From: Promethearchaeota archaeon
GTDB taxonomy: Archaea; Asgardarchaeota; Lokiarchaeia; Sigyniarchaeales; SOKP01
Direction: 5' to 3'
Assembly: GCA_019058295.1 (NCBI GenBank)
Contig: JAHPZI010000022.1
Location: 1-64,000, forward strand
Length of the DNA stretch: 64,000 bases
This document shows, piece after piece, positions 28,188 through 34,265 of the stretch. Every line of letters starts with the position of its first letter. Position 1 is the first letter of the stretch. A program made the translations under genes and the position numbers. The notes under the pieces are model-generated. The model searched no databases and had not been told where the DNA came from. It was given only the letters and a program-made list of their open reading frames with translations.

Positions 28188-30155
28188 TTAAGAATAATAT
28201 CCTTTTTTATTGAATCTTCTTCTTAAAGACTTATCATTTTTAACCTTGTTAGTTAAAGATTTGATTTTCTTTTCAATTAAGTAAACTTCTTTTTGTAGAT
28301 TTTTGAATGTCTTGAAATACATTGCTTGATCAATAATACCTTCATTGAATTTGGCATCAAGTTTTTTTATTGTTTCCTTTAGACTAAATCTTTCCTTTTT
28401 GAGGTCGATCAACTTATTATAAAGCTTTTTATCAAATTCAAATAAATGGTCGTCATCGTATAAGATGTTGTCTATTGGAGGTTCTTCATGGTTAAATAGC
28501 CCATACAAATGATTTTTATGAAAATCATTAAATGAATGATTAATATTTCCGGGGAAGGGTGGATTAAAATCCCGATAATTATCTCTTTCGTTGAATAAGT
28601 CCCCTGATAATCCATAATTAGGATGTGGAAATTGTTGATCAAACTTTTGGGCTTTTTTTAATCTTTTCATCAAGATATTTCTTTCATCAACGTCGCGAAA
28701 TCTTCCATTATATTGATGATTATCCATAGGTCGGAAATTCTGATGCATGTAAGGGTTATAGATATTTCTATAATAATTATGATCTTCTGGATTTGGCGAT
28801 TGAGAATTAATATCACTAAATAAAATTGATTCTTCGTTTGGGTCATTCATAGAATAGTTGTTATATCCTTTTTGAGCCCAATATTGCGGATAATTTAGAG
28901 GATTGTTGAAATAAACTTCATCTTCTTTATTTTTATTGTTAATAATATCTTGATTTATTTGACATTTTATACTAAAAAATGAATGGATGCTTTCTTCAAT
29001 ATATCTTACTAAATCGCTCAAATCTAAATCCATTTCATGAAGTTGTTTTGCTGAAGCATGATCGTATATATCATTTTCTTTAAATGCTCTTGCTAAAAGA
29101 ATATATTCCATTATTTTTGAAACCATATTCGACGGAAATGAAAATTCATATTTTCCGTAATCGAATTGTAAAAATAATTTTCTGAATAATTTTCCTTTAT
29201 CCTTAATTTTAATTAAATCATCAATAGGAGCTTTAAAAATTAAGTCTTTTCTTTTTTTAATAAAACCAGATTCATGTACAAAAGATAAATCAAAGTTGGT
29301 AATAAATAAAATCCCTTTACTTTTCCTTAATCTTTTTTGAGGATCTAATCCATTCATAAGTGTGGTATTAACTGCATAAATTGGCTTCTCTTTCTCTGCT
29401 AAATTTAGAAATTGCTGGTTAGGTAAAAAGATCTTAGTTATCTTATCAATGAATTGTAAATTTTTTTGGAAATACTCTAGTTTTTCATCAATTTCTTTTA
29501 TATTTTTATTAACGAAATTATTAATAGAATCCTGATTTTGAGATACACTTTCTAAAATATTCTCTATTATCCTTATATTTGAATTAGGCTGATTATAAAT
29601 ATCAAAAAAATATTGCTTATTCAGTGCTAAATGACGGAAGTGTGCTTTGATTTTTTCTAGTAAATTCTCTTTTATATAGACAATTTGATTAAAAATAGCT
29701 AACAAATCTGATTCCATTTTGGGATAATGAAAACATCTTATTGGAGGACTCCTCGCATTTTTTATCTTATGTCTTATTAAATATAATTTGTTAATTATAT
29801 CCTTGTCTGGTATAAACGAGCGAGATAATTTAATTAATTCCAAAAATTTCTGTTCGAGTTCTTCTTTTTTTTCGTAAATATTAAGAACGTTATGAGAATG
29901 ACACTTTGGGCAGGATTTAAAATGTTGAGTAATTTTATGCACGTTTTCCTTTCCGCATTCTTTACATACTTTTTTTTCCTCTTTCTCGTTATAAGTAATC
30001 TCCTTAGAATTGCAATCTTGGCATATAAAATCGTCTATGAAATCGTCGCGCAAACAGTCAGAACAACATGATATACCACAATCTTCGCAATAAAATAAAA
30101 CATTCATTTCTCTATTACAAAATCGGCACAATTGCTTACTTTTTTGGACTGACAT
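28188..30155 (-). CDS. Zn-finger / coiled-coil / PH(GRAM)-like / low-complexity / steadiness-box (Vps23-like) multidomain protein
   Basis: six N-terminal CxxC pairs; GILFITN..L.F PH-like block; C-terminal SLKETIKKLDAKFNEGIIDQAMYFKTFKNLQKE resembles the ESCRT-I SB helical hairpin. Confidence 0.65.
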   Translation of the reverse strand: MSVQKSKQLCRFCNREMNVLFYCEDCGISCCSDCLRDDFIDDFICQDCNSKEITYNEKEEKKVCKECGKENVHKITQHFKSCPKCHSHNVLNIYEKKEELEQKFLELIKLSRSFIPDKDIINKLYLIRHKIKNARSPPIRCFHYPKMESDLLAIFNQIVYIKENLLEKIKAHFRHLALNKQYFFDIYNQPNSNIRIIENILESVSQNQDSINNFVNKNIKEIDEKLEYFQKNLQFIDKITKIFLPNQQFLNLAEKEKPIYAVNTTLMNGLDPQKRLRKSKGILFITNFDLSFVHESGFIKKRKDLIFKAPIDDLIKIKDKGKLFRKLFLQFDYGKYEFSFPSNMVSKIMEYILLARAFKENDIYDHASAKQLHEMDLDLSDLVRYIEESIHSFFSIKCQINQDIINNKNKEDEVYFNNPLNYPQYWAQKGYNNYSMNDPNEESILFSDINSQSPNPEDHNYYRNIYNPYMHQNFRPMDNHQYNGRFRDVDERNILMKRLKKAQKFDQQFPHPNYGLSGDLFNERDNYRDFNPPFPGNINHSFNDFHKNHLYGLFNHEEPPIDNILYDDDHLFEFDKKLYNKLIDLKKERFSLKETIKKLDAKFNEGIIDQAMYFKTFKNLQKEVYLIEKKIKSLTNKVKNDKSLRRRFNKKGYYS

Positions 30156-30302
30156 TTTAATTTTTAATCCTAACCTAAATTTAATGAGAATTTAGTTTTA
30201 ACAATAAAAGATATAATTTAGTTCAAAAATGAGTATGTTATTTGTGTATTATCTCTGAAATAAAAAAAAATAGATTTTTAAGTGGATTTTCTCTATTAAA
30301 TA

Positions 30303-30390
30303 CGCAAGGGGAGGGATTCGAACCCTCGAATGACATTATATCATTATCGGGATAGCAACCCGACGCACTCGACCACTATGCGACCCCTGC
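30303..30390 (-). tRNA. tRNA-Ser(GCT)
   Basis: anticodon arm TCGGG TTGCTAT CCCGA, long variable arm, G73. Confidence 0.93.
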
Positions 30391-30399
30391 TTATATAAG

Positions 30400-30487
30400 C
30401 GCGACGGGTAGGATTTGAACCTACGGTGGTGTTGAGCCACTCCCACTCTCAAGGCGGGCACAATCAACCGAGCTCTGTCACCGTCGC
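30400..30487 (-). tRNA. tRNA-Ser(TGA)
   Basis: CCCGC CTTGAGA GTGGG, long variable arm, G73. Confidence 0.93.
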
Positions 30488-30499
30488 TTTTTTTATGAA

Positions 30500-30583
30500 T
30501 ACGGGAATGCGGATTTGAACCGCAGAACCTCCTTTGAGGAGTGAAGTTTGAATTCACTGCCTTTACCACTCAGCCATTCCCGC
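30500..30583 (-). tRNA. tRNA-Leu(CAA)
   Basis: GTGAA TTCAAAC TTCAC, long variable arm, A73. Confidence 0.92.
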
Positions 30584-30588
30584 TTTTT

Positions 30589-30672
30589 TACAGGGAGAGG
30601 GACTCGAACCCTCGTAGTTCCTGCGAACCCTGAATCCTAAATCCAGTACCTTTGCCGCTTGGTTATCCCTGC
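30589..30672 (-). tRNA. tRNA-Leu(TAG)
   Basis: CTGGA TTTAGGA TTCAG, long variable arm, A73. Confidence 0.92.
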
Positions 30673-30681
30673 TTAATAGAA

Positions 30682-30767
30682 TACAAGGGGAGGGATTTGA
30701 ACCCTCGTACTCCCTGTGGAGAATAGATCTTAAGTCTATCGCTTTTACCTTTCTTAGCTACCCTTGC
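30682..30767 (-). tRNA. tRNA-Leu(TAA)
   Basis: ATAGA CTTAAGA TCTAT, long variable arm, A73. Confidence 0.93.
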
Positions 30768-30777
30768 TTACTTAAAA

Positions 30778-30850
30778 TGGGCTGGAGGGGACTTGAACCC
30801 CCGACCTCCGAGTTAAAAGCCCGTTGCGCTACCTGCTACGCTACCAGCCC
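30778..30850 (-). tRNA. tRNA-Lys(TTT)
   Basis: GGGCTGG/CCAGCCC acceptor; loop CTTTTAA. Confidence 0.93.
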
Positions 30851-30858
30851 ATTTTTGA

Positions 30859-30934
30859 TAGGAGTGGAGAGGATTGAACTCTCGACCACTGCGTTATAAG
30901 CACAGGGCTCTACCAATAACTAAGCTACACTCCT
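30859..30934 (-). tRNA. tRNA-Ile(TAT)
   Basis: CTGTG CTTATAA CGCAG; acceptor AGGAGTG/CACTCCT-A identical to the Ile(GAT) gene in the same array. Confidence 0.9.
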
Positions 30935-30939
30935 ATTGA

Positions 30940-31012
30940 TACACCCGGTAGGATTCGAACCTACATCCCCTCGCTTCGAAGGCGAGTATCCTCTCCATTG
31001 GACTACGGGTGT
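30940..31012 (-). tRNA. tRNA-Arg(TCG)
   Basis: CTCGC CTTCGAA GCGAG; A20 in D loop. Confidence 0.93.
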
Positions 31013-31018
31013 GAAGTT

Positions 31019-31095
31019 TGGTACGGGCGTGTGGATTTGAACCACAATCCATGACTTATGAGACCATAATTCTTACCAGATTAAACTACGCCCGT
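31019..31095 (-). tRNA. tRNA-Met(CAT), probably elongator; CCA encoded
   Basis: ATGGT CTCATAA GTCAT; lacks the three G-C pairs of initiator anticodon stems. Confidence 0.85.
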
Positions 31096-31103
31096 ATATA
31101 TAG

Positions 31104-31177
31104 TGGGGTTGGAAGGATTTGAACCCTCAACCTTTGATTTTGGAGACCACTGCTCTAAACCGCTAAGCTACAACCCC
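31104..31177 (-). tRNA. tRNA-Trp(CCA), intronless
   Basis: loop CTCCAAA; GGGGTTG/CAACCCC-A. Confidence 0.9.
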
Positions 31178-31185
31178 ATATTTAA

Positions 31186-31258
31186 TGAGGGTGGTAGGAT
31201 TCGAACCTACGACCTTTAGATTAGAAGTCTAACACCTTATCCGCTAGGCTACACCCTC
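31186..31258 (-). tRNA. tRNA-Arg(TCT)
   Basis: TTAGA CTTCTAA TCTAA; A20. Confidence 0.93.
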
Positions 31259-31266
31259 ATAATTAA

Positions 31267-31341
31267 TAGGAGAGATCGGATTTGAACCGATGCAGTCTTC
31301 CTCGTAAGGGAAGATCCATAACCAGGCTAGGAGACTCTCCC
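31267..31341 (-). tRNA. tRNA-Val(TAC)
   Basis: CTTCC CTTACGA GGAAG. Confidence 0.88.
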
Positions 31342-31348
31342 AAGATAA

Positions 31349-31422
31349 GGGGCATAGAGGGAATTGAACCCTCGATCCTACGATTAAGAGTCGCATGCTT
31401 TCCCTAACTAAGCCATATGCCC
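31349..31422 (-). tRNA. tRNA-Lys(CTT)
   Basis: TGCGA CTCTTAA TCGTA. Confidence 0.92.
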
Positions 31423-31437
31423 ATAGATGTGCCAATA

Positions 31438-31516
31438 TGGTAGGAGTGGAGAGATTTGAACTCTCGAACCTATAGTTTATCAGACTATCGCTCATTCCAG
31501 GCTGAGCTACACTCCT
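31438..31516 (-). tRNA. tRNA-Ile(GAT); CCA encoded
   Basis: ATAGT CTGATAA ACTAT. Confidence 0.93.
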
Positions 31517-31553
31517 ATTATTAGAAATTGAATTTGATATCTGATAACAAGAG

Positions 31554-31625
31554 TGGGATCAGAGTGACTTGAACACTCGCCCCAAGATCTTCATTCTTGT
31601 GCTCTCCCAGTTGAGCTATGATCCC
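31554..31625 (-). tRNA. tRNA-Phe(GAA)
   Basis: CAAGA ATGAAGA TCTTG. Confidence 0.9.
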
Positions 31626-31687
31626 TAAAATCTCCTCTGATTTTTTGAAGTCCACCTTTGGTCATTCTTAAATGACAATTTTTTCAT
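31625..31687 (-). CDS. putative 20-aa micro-ORF MKKLSFKNDQRWTSKNQRRF inside the left tRNA operon
   Basis: ATG at 31687; TAG overlaps G1 of tRNA-Phe; GAGGTGA 16 nt upstream. Confidence 0.35.
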   Translation of the reverse strand: MKKLSFKNDQRWTSKNQRRF

Positions 31688-31725
31688 TTTTTTTTTTATT
31701 TTTTCACCTCATTTTTTTTATTTTA

Positions 31726-31798
31726 CGCCCCTAGTAGGGTTCGAACCTACACCGCCCGATTAACAGTCGGAGATGCTACCTATTAACACTATAGAGGC
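31726..31798 (-). tRNA. tRNA-Asn(GTT)
   Basis: TCCGA CTGTTAA TCGGG; G73. Confidence 0.93.
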
Positions 31799-31917
31799 AT
31801 GTTTGAAGTTGTTGAATTAAGATAAAAGAAAAAGTATAATGCAAAAGCTAAGAGCTATGAGAATATCTTGGAAGTACAAAAGATAAATAAGTGGATTGTC
31901 AGATTTAAGTAAAGAAT

Positions 31918-32004
31918 TTACTGAATCAAACTGGAGGAGAGAAGATTATTGACGAGATTCACTCGCCACCTTTTCGATCTTAACTTAAATCTAAGTGAGG
32001 CCAT
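31918..32004 (-). CDS. putative leader peptide of left tRNA operon, MASLRFKLRSKRWRVNLVNNLLSSSLIQ (28 aa)
   Basis: ATG 25 nt downstream of a TTTAAATA box; 26/28 residues are amino acids of the downstream tRNAs. Confidence 0.7.
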   Translation of the reverse strand: MASLRFKLRSKRWRVNLVNNLLSSSLIQ

Positions 32005-32029
32005 AATACTATCATTATTATTAATTAAG

Positions 32030-32044
32030 TATTTAAATGTTTTG
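32030..32044 (-). promoter_or_regulatory. BRE/TATA promoter for left tRNA operon
   Basis: minus strand CAAAACA-TTTAAATA, box at 32037-32030. Confidence 0.65.
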
Positions 32045-32068
32045 TTTAAATGGCTAAAACGATTAAAA

Positions 32069-32115
32069 TGGGAAAGAAATGGGTAAGATAGTGAATGTGG
32101 GAAAAGAATGGGTAA
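32069..32115. repeat. 18-bp direct repeat between the divergent promoters
   Basis: TGGGAAAGAAATGGGTAA (32069-86) and TGGGAAAAGAATGGGTAA (32098-115). Confidence 0.75.
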
Positions 32116-32122
32116 TTTTGAA

Positions 32123-32137
32123 CGAAATATTTAAATA
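32123..32137 (+). promoter_or_regulatory. BRE/TATA promoter for right tRNA operon
   Basis: CGAAATA-TTTAAATA, box at 32130-32137. Confidence 0.65.
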
Positions 32138-32162
32138 TTTAATTTGTGATATTATAAATACA

Positions 32163-32252
32163 ATGAGACGTGCAAAAGTGGCAACAACCACCTACCAGGA
32201 TATAGGCGCCCCCGAGCAGGGGCAATATGATAGCGAATGCTATCACCAATAA
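32163..32252 (+). CDS. putative leader peptide of right tRNA operon, MRRAKVATTTYQDIGAPEQGQYDSECYHQ (29 aa)
   Basis: ATG 25 nt downstream of TTTAAATA; 22/29 residues are amino acids of the downstream tRNAs and all ten are present. Confidence 0.7.
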   Translation: MRRAKVATTTYQDIGAPEQGQYDSECYHQ

Positions 32253-32390
32253 AAAATTTTACCCGTCTCTATTGATTTCCTTATTCTTTCCTTAGTTTTC
32301 CTAACCTTGATCGCCGTTTTCTATATACTTTAAAATCCATTTATCACGTTACTTATTTTTTCAGAAAACGGGTAAAAGCTTCATAATGAA

Positions 32391-32463
32391 GGACTGTGTA
32401 GTGTAATGGCATGCATTGAAGTTTGTGAATCTTCAGGAGGTGGTTCGATTCCGCCCACAGTCC
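32391..32463 (+). tRNA. tRNA-His(GTG)
   Basis: encoded G-1:C73, loop TTGTGAA. Confidence 0.88.
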
Positions 32464-32497
32464 TTCTTTCATAAATATAACGCATAGAAAATAAAAA

Positions 32498-32571
32498 GGG
32501 GCTGTAATATCAATCGGAAGATACTTGGTGTTGCATACCAAGGGTTGTAGGTTCAAGTCCTACCAGCTCCA
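32498..32571 (+). tRNA. tRNA-Ala(TGC)
   Basis: G3.U70, loop GTTGCAT, A73. Confidence 0.9.
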
Positions 32572-32578
32572 TAAAAAT

Positions 32579-32651
32579 ACTCCCGTAGTGTAGAGGACAA
32601 GCACTCCAAGCCTTGGACTTGGTAACGTCGGTTCGAATCCGTCCGGGAGTA
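32579..32651 (+). tRNA. tRNA-Gln(TTG)
   Basis: A1-U72; CCAAG CCTTGGA CTTGG (C33). Confidence 0.85.
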
Positions 32652-32668
32652 GTAATTTCATTGGAATT

Positions 32669-32742
32669 CTTGCTGTAGCTCAGACAGGTAGAGCAGGGGA
32701 CTGTAGATCCTTGGAGCGGAGGTTCAAATCCTCCCAGCAAGA
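32669..32742 (+). tRNA. tRNA-Tyr(GTA), intronless
   Basis: C1-G72, short variable loop, GGGGA CTGTAGA TCCTT. Confidence 0.93.
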
Positions 32743-32751
32743 CTAAGAAGC

Positions 32752-32826
32752 GGGGCACTAGTATAGTGGCTAGTATTCGCGACCGTCTATCGTGAGAAGG
32801 GGGATCGATACCCCCGTGCTCCGCCA
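32752..32826 (+). tRNA. tRNA-Asp(GTC), atypical; CCA encoded
   Basis: CGCGA CCGTCTA TCGTG, G73; carries G3.U70, C33, U37, A54. Confidence 0.82.
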
Positions 32827-32847
32827 AAAAGCATTGGAAATAATCGT

Positions 32848-32922
32848 GCGGGATTCATCTAGCGGTCAGGATCATCGCCTTCCAAGTGATTCACGGGTGT
32901 TCAAATCGCCCATCCCGCACCA
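32848..32922 (+). tRNA. tRNA-Gly(TCC); CCA encoded
   Basis: GCG/CGC-A acceptor end; ATCGC CTTCCAA GTGAT. Confidence 0.92.
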
Positions 32923-32927
32923 ATAAA

Positions 32928-33005
32928 GGCACTGTGGCCAAGTTTGGACAAGGCAGCTTCCTTGTAAGTAGCCGAGCGGGGGTTCGAATCCTCCCAGTGC
33001 CTCCA
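32928..33005 (+). tRNA. tRNA-Thr(TGT); CCA encoded
   Basis: loop CTTGTAA; GGCACTG/CAGTGCC-U. Confidence 0.85.
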
Positions 33006-33014
33006 GTAAAATAG

Positions 33015-33090
33015 GCATGCGTGGCTGAAAAGTTGAGGCGGGAGACTGCAGATCTCCTCTATGCAGGTGCAAGTCCTGCCGCGTGCTCCA
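33015..33090 (+). tRNA. tRNA-Cys(GCA); CCA encoded
   Basis: GGAGA CTGCAGA TCTCC; U73; T loop TGCAAGT. Confidence 0.9.
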
Positions 33091-33095
33091 ATCAA

Positions 33096-33170
33096 GCCCC
33101 TGTCATCTAGTAAGGTCAAGGATCCATGATTCTCAATCATGAAACGCAGATTCAAATTCTGCCAGGGGTA
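33096..33170 (+). tRNA. tRNA-Glu(CTC)
   Basis: CATGA TTCTCAA TCATG. Confidence 0.9.
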
Positions 33171-33175
33171 TAAAT

Positions 33176-33250
33176 GCTTCCATGGTGTAGCTAGGTCAAG
33201 CATCGTAGGTTTTCACCCTGCGGACTCGGGTTCGAATCCCGATGGAAGCA
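33176..33250 (+). tRNA. tRNA-Glu(TTC)
   Basis: GTAGG TTTTCAC CCTGC. Confidence 0.93.
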
Positions 33251-33260
33251 CTCATTAAAT

Positions 33261-33334
33261 GGGAGGGTAATCTAGCATGGAAGGATCCTCGCTTTGGAAG
33301 CGAGATGTCGGGAGTTCAAATCTCCTCTCTCCCA
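33261..33334 (+). tRNA. tRNA-Pro(TGG)
   Basis: GGG/CCC-A acceptor end; CTCGC TTTGGAA GCGAG. Confidence 0.9.
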
Positions 33335-33341
33335 TTTTAAT

Positions 33342-34265
33342 TTAAACAAAAGCATCTAAACATGTTTGATTTTTAACTACTTGAATCCTCTTATTTGCGA
33401 GTTCAATGTATTCCTTTGAGATTTCATATCCTACATAATGTCGTTTTAGTTTTAAGGCAGCAATTGCAGTTGTACCTGAACCTATAAAAGGATCTAATAT
33501 TACATCTCCCTCAAAGGAATAAATCTCAATTAAACGACGAGGCAATTCTTCTGGAAATGGAGCAGGATGCCCTATTTTTTTGGCTGAATCTGCTGGAAAA
33601 TTCCAAATAGATTTTGACCATTCAACGAAATCTTCCTTTTTTATCGTATTTACTTTGTTTCCTTTTTCAAGTCTATTTGAAAGTTTTGAGAATACTAATA
33701 TATACTCGTGTATATCTCTGAGACAAGGATTACTTGCCGAAGCGAAAGATCCCCAAGCGGTTGAAACACCGGCTGATGCTCCCTTATTCCAAATGATTTC
33801 GCCGCGCATATGAAAACCAATTTGATGCATTATTTCAATAATATATGCGTGTAATGGAATGTATGGTTTCCGCCCAACATTTGCAATATTTATTGCAGCT
33901 CTACCTCCAGGTACTAAAACTCTCCAAGTTTCTTTAAGAACATCTTCAAGTAATTTTAAATATTCAACAAGAGTCAAATTATCATCATAATCTTTTCCAA
34001 CGCCATAAGGAGGACTGGTTATCATTAGATGTACTGAATTATCAGGTAATAAGTCTATTTTGCGACTATCTCCTTGAATTATCTGATCTAAAGCTTTTTT
34101 TGGAATTTTATCTGAATTATCAACGTATTTAACTTTTTGTAGTTTGTTTAAACCTTTATATAAATTTGAATTATAAAAGAGAGATGAATCGTGGTTTTCC
34201 CGTTTTGAAACTCCAAAAGAACTAGTTTTTGTACCTTTTTTTGGAGTTTCCTTTTTATTTACCAT
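33342..34265 (-). CDS. site-specific DNA methyltransferase, beta class (N4-C/N6-A)
   Basis: TSPPY before HPAPFP and DPFIGSGTT. Confidence 0.92.
   Translation of the reverse strand: MVNKKETPKKGTKTSSFGVSKRENHDSSLFYNSNLYKGLNKLQKVKYVDNSDKIPKKALDQIIQGDSRKIDLLPDNSVHLMITSPPYGVGKDYDDNLTLVEYLKLLEDVLKETWRVLVPGGRAAINIANVGRKPYIPLHAYIIEIMHQIGFHMRGEIIWNKGASAGVSTAWGSFASASNPCLRDIHEYILVFSKLSNRLEKGNKVNTIKKEDFVEWSKSIWNFPADSAKKIGHPAPFPEELPRRLIEIYSFEGDVILDPFIGSGTTAIAALKLKRHYVGYEISKEYIELANKRIQVVKNQTCLDAFV

Follow-up and report, generated by a model that had tools for sequence, protein, structure and literature searches.

The 64,000-nucleotide stretch of DNA analysed here (the window) contains a cluster of 27 intronless tRNA genes within 3 kb, arranged in two divergent blocks and identified with ARAGORN and Rfam. 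Together, the two blocks cover all 20 amino acids, with no amino acid common to both. The divergent region between the operons is 591 bp long and holds two TATA boxes and two mini-ORFs, referred to here as the left and right leaders; the ten amino acids served by each operon are referred to as the left and right sets. The coordinates of these features are listed in Table 1.

Table 1. Features of the divergent tRNA array and its surroundings (window coordinates unless a locus is named).
Feature	Position	Strand	Remarks
Left tRNA operon	30303..31799	-	16 intronless tRNAs; ARAGORN; Rfam RF00005, 49-76 bits; in transcription order Asn, Phe, Ile-GAU, Lys-CUU, Val, Arg-UCU, Trp, Met, Arg-UCG, Ile-UAU, Lys-UUU, Leu x3, Ser x2
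Left spacer (leader stop to tRNA-Asn)	31800..31917	-	transcribed strand 46% T, 5% G; one T5 run
Left leader mini-ORF	31918..32004	-	28 aa; 26/28 residues from the left operon's ten amino acids
Left TATA box	32030..32037	-	TTTAAATA on the minus strand; 25 nt 5' of the left ATG (32004)
Bipartite motif RTGGGAAA-N4-TGGGTAA, two direct copies	32068-32086 and 32097-32115	+	between the TATA boxes
Right TATA box	32130..32137	+	TTTAAATA; 25 nt 5' of the right ATG (32163)
Right leader mini-ORF	32163..32252	+	29 aa; 22/29 residues from the right operon's ten amino acids
Small conserved hairpin ATAGC-GAAN-GCTAT	within 32163..32252	+	stem kept; loop base varies, giving Cys, Arg or Gly
Right spacer	32253..32390	+	43% T, 9% G; T6 run at 32356-32361
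Segment 2	32257-32269	+	TTTTACCCGTCTC; begins 5 nt after the right leader stop
TATA-like box in spacer	32329-32336
Segment 3	32362-32378	+	CAGAAAACGGGTAAAAG; able to pair with segment 2
Right tRNA operon	32391..33335	+	11 intronless tRNAs; ARAGORN, Rfam; His, Ala, Gln, Tyr, Asp, Gly, Thr, Cys, Glu-CUC, Glu-UUC, Pro
tRNA-Met(CAU) gene	31019-31095	-	within the left operon
655-aa ORF	28188-30155	-	adjoins the Ser end of the left operon
N6/N4 DNA methyltransferase gene	33342-34265	-	at the Pro end of the right operon
Same gene, L059	8107-9033
Same gene, L065	1600-2676

The window belongs to a 3.2-Mb, 31% GC, 79%-complete metagenome-assembled genome (MAG). A conserved 3-dehydroquinate synthase II encoded near the array shares 99% identity with its counterpart in a Promethearchaeota (Asgard) MAG and 60-80% with those of many others. 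Proteins typical of Asgard archaea (WD40, LRR, small GTPases, XPD) are encoded in the flanks. The Asgard archaeal setting given in a preliminary description of the locus, made from the sequence alone, thus held. Outside the array, 13-17 scattered tRNAs, often with introns, were detected in this incomplete genome.

Several features of the array and its neighborhood were recorded separately. The array tRNA-Met(CAU) has the A1:U72 pair that is a hallmark of archaeal initiators. It lacks, however, the three G:C pairs in the anticodon stem, and its 3' CCA is encoded. The 655-aa ORF had no Pfam match, and a homologue flanks the L036 array. In three different types of array, an N6/N4 DNA methyltransferase gene adjoins the right operon at its Pro end, and it seems to move together with the array. 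LAGLIDADG homing-endonuclease-like ORFs lie beside several arrays or detached Leu/Ser units (L065, 8245-9120; L037; L070, 212-1035), which hints at mobility or targeted insertion.

The preliminary description had reported divergent TATA boxes, an exact 25-nt spacing from each to an ATG, and the translations of both mini-ORFs; all of these held on re-inspection. In the host genome, TATA boxes peak 21-26 nt before the ATG of long ORFs, and leaderless mRNAs are therefore in use. The TATA-to-ATG spacing of the leaders falls within this leaderless peak, and the position of the left box relative to its ATG implies a leaderless mRNA. The bipartite motif has only three matches in the 3.2-Mb genome, two of which are those between the TATA boxes of the window.

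Composition of the leader mini-ORFs

The codons of the left leader match 14 of the 16 tRNA species of the left operon, and those of the right leader match all 11 species of the right operon, including both GAA and GAG. The counts made earlier (26/28 and 22/29 own-set residues, 14/16 left isoacceptors and all ten right-set amino acids) were confirmed. When all possible 10/10 amino-acid splits were ranked by how well they sort the 57 leader residues of the window, the true split ranked 1 of 184,756 (p=5.4e-6). Stop-avoiding, composition-preserving shuffles of the two ORFs gave p=5e-5 (left) and 1.5e-3 (right). Since the enrichment survives shuffles that preserve the base composition of each ORF, the GC-richness of the right ORF does not explain it. 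Among the small ATG-ORFs of the same genome (n=7,737), 0.85% equalled the set richness of the left leader and 0.026% that of the right. All ten right-set amino acids occurred together in 2 of 4,631 null ORFs (0.04%), and one null ORF in 4,255 covered all 11 right tRNA species. The first 7-9 codons of the right leaders, and of the Leu/Ser leaders described below, are not drawn from the leader's own set.

Homologous arrays and their leaders

Eight genomes of Promethearchaeota (Asgard) and about 15 metagenome contigs from sediment carry homologous divergent arrays. A DNA-level search among 60 relatives recovered the same divergent arrays in G005 (94% identical) and in G003 and G009 (~73%), and parts of them in the genus g4. 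A pattern search for the right leader matched 7 of 400 genomes of the phylum, all from two genera of one family, and 32 metagenome contigs, mostly from marine sediment. Some 15 of these contigs carried real arrays; about half of the metagenome matches were high-GC chance matches and were removed. In IMG/VR, the same pattern found no viral array. Its sole match there, in 51% GC DNA without tRNAs, was due to chance, and a viral origin was rejected.

Given this restricted occurrence among relatives, the array is accessory and patchy. It meets the description of an accessory tRNA array in being dense, additional to the scattered tRNA set and patchily distributed. That it serves as a "back-up" set, as the preliminary description had it, is an inference; only the patchy, accessory distribution is shown.

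The promoters are conserved together with the arrays. The distance from TATA box to start codon is 25 nt for right leaders (27 in L045), counted for homologues whose box matches the search consensus, 22-25 nt for left leaders and 26 nt for Leu/Ser leaders. The bipartite motif (RTGGGAAA-N4-TGGGYAA) lies 5' of the TATA box for all three leader types. A near-unique motif before every type of array promoter points to a dedicated regulator whose effect would be added to that of the leaders; we infer that the motif is probably an operator, and the regulator is unidentified. In the genus g4, the divergent operons are separated by an inserted 3-4 kb gene encoding an LRR protein (L060, 6813-9908; L062, 5913-9716), and in G024 a second copy of the operator and TATA box lies 5' of the inserted gene.

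The ORFs are conserved as ORFs. No in-frame stop occurs in any of the 19 right, 10 left and 4 Leu/Ser unique leaders, as compared with 1-5 stops in the other frames (1-4 in each other frame of the 19 right leaders). Right leaders are 29, 31 or 33 aa long, their length changes are whole codons, and the leader stop codon switches from TAA to TGA in place. The dN/dS between types of right leader ranges from 0.24 to 0.9, such that the sequence is weakly conserved and the composition is kept. The middle of the g4 right leader is almost wholly rewritten between G012 and G031 and still is open and of the same composition. Thus, a short conserved ORF (20-33 aa) lies between promoter and tRNAs, as expected of the attenuator class. 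ORFs with N-terminal extensions (57 aa at 32079-32252; 59-72 aa in the G003 type) were rejected as not conserved; the extension of the left leader is broken in L055 and L056, and every extension would begin upstream of its own TATA box.

The composition of the leaders followed the tRNA content of the operons downstream. Codons for 88-100% of a leader's own tRNA species were present in 23 of 24 leader instances, the exception being one g4 right leader (9/11), against a null mean of 50-60%. Right leaders hold codons for 9-11 of 11 species (null mean, 5.6) and left leaders for 14-15 of 16. Left leaders of all types draw 83-96% of their residues from the left set despite very different sequences (e.g., MEYRRIKVRSSRRILRSVSNKKLLW in the G003 type), and every one contains a Trp codon, which was present in only 27% of null ORFs. 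Right leaders begin with MRR and a hydrophobic stretch and consist of right-set residues afterwards; all ten right-set amino acids are present in 16 of 18 unique array-linked right leaders. Cys and His shift position among right leaders yet are retained. The Cys codon lies in the motif SECY, or three codons upstream when that codon of SECY encodes Arg or Gly, and L048 has both. Since the homologues share ancestry, the p values obtained for individual loci are not independent.

The co-variation was most evident where an operon had been split. In the metagenome locus L029, an inversion has placed the three Leu and two Ser tRNAs in a separate unit. The main left leader of this locus, MDHRIFKIRMFRRRVNVVIINRFKW, contains no Leu and no Ser and has codons for all 11 remaining tRNA species. 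A separate leader for the split-off unit was predicted before inspection and was then found: a TTTATATA box lies 26 nt before the leader MISNKNNNLSSSLLLSSLLLL, whose five Leu and five Ser codons cover 5 of 5 tRNAs. In the four g4 genomes, this Leu/Ser unit lies on a different contig, and the main left operons have no Leu or Ser tRNAs. A homologous leader, with a GTG start in two cases, precedes the unit in three of the four; in G031 the contig stops 65 nt before the first tRNA of the unit. The Leu/Ser leaders of L029 and g4 are 20-21 aa long with 13-14 Leu or Ser residues (~70%), a richness reached by 0 of 7,910 null ORFs, and have a TATA box 26 nt upstream. The main left leaders of L029 and g4 contain 0-1 Leu or Ser residues; the null probability of none is 0.9%. 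By an exact dynamic-programming count of three-way partitions, the true 8/2/10 partition in L029 was the best of 8,314,020 (p=1.2e-7), and p=3.6e-7 was obtained for G190 and G024.

The match has exceptions. G003 and L045 lack Leu tRNAs, yet keep 3-4 Leu codons in the leader, and the His codon is missing from three of four g4 right leaders (G190, G031 and G024). Shuffle p values ranged from 5e-5 to 1.5e-2 across leaders except for the G009 right leader. In the G003/G009 type, only 14-16 of the 28 residues of the right leader belong to its own set, and 10-11 of 11 tRNA species are still covered; the G009 leader itself (50% own-set, 10/11 tRNAs covered) gave p=0.41.

These results bear on three sequence-level checks named in the preliminary description, all of which supported it. 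Homologous leaders had to be open, and open frames were found in all homologous arrays. Composition had to follow the downstream tRNAs, which held apart from the Leu codons of G003 and L045 and the His codons of g4. Enrichment had to persist after control for base composition; it did in the window and failed for the G009 right leader. Taken together, partition rank, shuffles, coverage and Leu/Ser co-variation establish the codon enrichment that defines the attenuator class, and the leader codons match the downstream tRNAs and co-evolve with them.

Other variations among the homologues were noted. Anticodon changes occur inside conserved array slots (L034, 1445; L063, 2180; L055, 1893; L064, 7776): the Asp slot reads GTT (Asn) in G031 and L034, the Val slot was called Leu-TAA in L055, and the Ile-UAU slot was called "Tyr-ATA" in G003. 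L051 holds an orphan right promoter and leader (ORF at 1234-1323 on the strand of the pattern match) with no tRNA within 1.2 kb upstream; the peptide looks degenerate, most of its right-set residues being gone, and the contig ends 61 nt past the stop. The C-terminal NNLLSSSL of the left leader of the window (31918-31950) resembles NNNLSSSL of the L029 Leu/Ser leader, a likeness that could reflect fusion or splitting of homologous leader modules or merely low-complexity convergence.

Spacers and RNA structure

The spacers between leaders and tRNAs are U-rich and G-poor. In both directions, they are 110-230 nt long, with 37-46% T and 5-15% G on the transcribed strand, and 18 of 24 contain runs of T5-T10. 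Archaeal transcription termination uses U-tracts, which set its efficiency, and the termination factor FttA/aCPSF1 prefers U-rich nascent RNA (PMC8716108, PMC11616081). No canonical terminator hairpin was found in the leader regions.

To search for long-range pairing, the first 45 nt after the leader stop were compared with the last 75 nt before the first tRNA. In the right spacer of the window, segments 2 and 3 form a duplex, termed helix 2:3, of -14.7 kcal/mol (shuffle p=0.006). Equivalent duplexes were significant, with z of -2.7 to -6, in 8 of 10 right leaders, in the left leaders of the G003 type, L029 and L059, and in the L029 Leu/Ser leader. No significant duplex was found in the left leader of the window or in the g4 left leaders. 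Helix 2:3 is thus statistically supported. Because its 5' arm begins 1-12 nt past the stop codon, a terminating ribosome would cover or melt the arm. The position of the T run relative to the helix varies: a T6 run directly follows segment 3 in the G003 type, where the helix is 12 bp long, and the run precedes segment 3 in the window.

Further structure was limited. RNAalifold of 15 right leaders gave -5.8 kcal/mol, due to the small hairpin only, and the minimum-free-energy z-scores were -0.8 and -1.5 for the leaders of the window and -2.65 for L053. With such weak values, a strongly structured noncoding RNA was not accepted. A known RNA family was likewise rejected: an Rfam scan of 29500-34000 by E value returned only tRNAs and weak chance matches, with no T-box. 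A helix closing the ORF, formed between its 5' part and the sequence after the stop (GAGACG/CGTCTC and analogues), was dropped: in most leaders it spans 6-8 bp, and it did not reach significance in the shuffle comparison.

A TATA-like box is also found in each spacer, 54-78 nt 5' of the tRNA. The scattered tRNAs of the host have TATA boxes ~20-30 nt upstream, whereas the first array tRNAs lack such a proximal box. A second promoter in the spacer, bypassing the leader, remains possible and is not excluded.

Proposed mechanism, rival explanations and known systems

Without a functional link between decoding of the ORFs and the downstream tRNAs, it is difficult to account for the codon match, for its completeness down to individual isoacceptors and for the joint movement of leader and tRNA modules. 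In our preferred reading, each transcription unit of the array would start with a leaderless mini-ORF acting in cis as a test track. Because nearly every downstream tRNA species is represented by at least one codon that a ribosome would have to decode, ribosome progress would report the supply of those charged tRNAs, and this progress would be coupled to the amount of transcript reaching the tRNA genes. The U-tracts in the spacer would serve as archaeal termination signals within RNA of the kind bound by FttA/aCPSF1, and a ribosome positioned at the stop codon would cover the 5' arm of the long-range helix. The logic would most likely be homeostatic, such that slow decoding of a unit's own codons gives more read-through into that unit. 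The archaeal setting (leaderless ORF, U-rich spacer and no hairpin terminator) points, by inference, to factor- or U-tract-dependent attenuation.

In the absence of transcript data, we consider this combination of a cis-acting test track, termination in the U-rich spacer and homeostatic ON logic slightly more likely to be wrong than right. It is inferred that the leaders are translated and co-transcribed with the tRNAs and that regulation acts at termination, and its sign is inferred as well. The preliminary description had proposed that stalling switches the operon on, with premature termination on a shared transcript, and these elements remain inference.

Three rival explanations were considered. 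The strongest, which is possible, retains the codon-matched sensors and reverses the sign, such that starvation lowers the synthesis of tRNAs that cannot be charged, in a stringent-like manner, or else places the output in precursor processing or stability. In its favor, the G003-type helix is directly followed by T6, and if this hairpin and U-run acted as a terminator, a stall would be predicted to turn the unit OFF: helix 2:3 forms only without a ribosome at the stop, and termination would be favored when ribosomes stall upstream. It has also been proposed that uncoupled RNA polymerase is more exposed to FttA (PMC11616081), which supports this rival. Against it, the T run follows segment 3 only in some types and precedes it in the window, a hairpin dependence of archaeal termination is not established, and starvation shut-off of an accessory duplicate set explains the sampling of every isoacceptor less well.

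The second rival, which we regard as unlikely, treats the mini-ORFs as separate small genes for trans-acting peptides, one basic and hydrophobic and the other acidic and polar. The tRNAs would then be transcribed from a second promoter in the spacer, and the partition match would be a by-product. Conserved motifs (the MRR start and GQY.SE.Y end of right leaders, the R.K.R pattern of left leaders) and the conserved position of the spacer TATA-like box speak for it. It fits poorly with partition ranks of 1 of 184,756 and 1 of 8.3 million, with coverage that reaches the isoacceptor level, and with a Leu/Ser module that moves with the Leu/Ser tRNAs. Moreover, dN/dS reaches 0.9, replacements are chemically radical yet remain within the set, and the spacer boxes, 54-78 nt from the tRNA, are unlike host tRNA promoters.

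The third, that the conserved stretches are noncoding RNA or DNA elements (processing stems or protein-binding sites) with incidental open frames, can draw on the 50% GC of the right ORF in a 31% GC genome, the preserved ATAGC-GAAN-GCTAT stem with its variable loop base and the conserved GAGACG/CGTCTC complementarity, but is very unlikely given that 33 unique sequences from three unrelated types of leader preserve the frame, that indels are whole codons, that the rewritten middle of the g4 right leader stays open with unchanged composition, that fold z-scores are weak and that an Rfam family match is lacking.

If the test-track reading is correct, tRNA genes would be under direct decoding feedback, separately for each transcription unit. 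It is poorly understood how the supply of each tRNA is adjusted to demand in cells. The reading would also offer, in the archaea most closely related to eukaryotes, a testable case of transcription coupled to translation for regulation. With its compact design (promoter, track of 20-30 codons and spacer), the system lends itself to testing and might find use as a switch responsive to tRNAs or amino acids. An accessory, intronless array with minimal anticodons and its own putative operator suggests an emergency or mobile decoding set, an idea that bears on conflicts in which tRNAs are targeted. A bolder version, toward which we lean slightly less than toward rejecting it, is a modular Asgard controller of tRNA supply with one isoacceptor-sampling leaderless ORF per unit, re-assorting with tRNA blocks, in which ribosome progress on the ORF would gate read-through of the spacer by FttA/aCPSF1-type termination. 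If true, it would represent the first case of translation-coupled attenuation among Archaea, and also the first of an attenuator that has tRNAs as its regulated products.

To our knowledge, no ribosome-mediated attenuation system is established in archaea. In the searchable literature, we found no leaders before tRNA arrays, no Asgard tRNA arrays and no archaeal leader-peptide attenuation; the earlier claim of novelty thus met no contrary description. A survey of archaea reported tRNA clusters solely in Halobacteria and Methanobacteria (PMC6333295). The locus resembles known prokaryotic and phage tRNA arrays (Tran et al. 2016; Morgado and Vicente 2018; PMC6333295), which also are dense, accessory and patchy, and, like them, it has ~27 tRNA genes for all 20 amino acids.

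As regulators, the putative leaders resemble T-box riboswitches in being cis-acting 5' elements that would sense tRNA status and control genes for tRNAs or aminoacylation. A T-box, however, binds one uncharged tRNA through a specifier codon without a ribosome, whereas the array leaders are multi-codon ORFs whose translation is inferred. Leader ORFs also control factor-dependent termination, as in E. coli tnaC with Rho and in Salmonella mgtL/mgtP. There, as here, the leader ORF is followed by an unstructured, pyrimidine-rich and G-poor spacer on which a termination factor could load, and a ribosome at or close to the stop codon would mask adjacent RNA. The array differs in that its factor would be FttA/aCPSF1, for which there is no experiment, and in that its codon set is matched to the downstream tRNA genes.

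By analogy, the closest known logic is that of a multivalent leader-peptide attenuator. The enterobacterial attenuators (ilvGMEDA for Ile/Leu/Val; thr for Thr/Ile; trpL, hisL and pheL) likewise have a short 5' ORF rich in the codons that report and conservation of codon identity over peptide sequence. They also have stop-adjacent RNA segments capable of alternative pairing, which in the array is only predicted, helix 2:3 being supported and the ORF-closing helix not. In the array, however, the tRNAs themselves lie downstream rather than biosynthetic enzymes. Its leaders sample 2, 8 or 10 amino acids, with up to 16 isoacceptors, most of which appear only one or two times instead of in single-codon runs, and they are associated with a TATA promoter, a predicted leaderless mRNA and, in place of a hairpin-plus-U terminator, a termination step that is only inferred.
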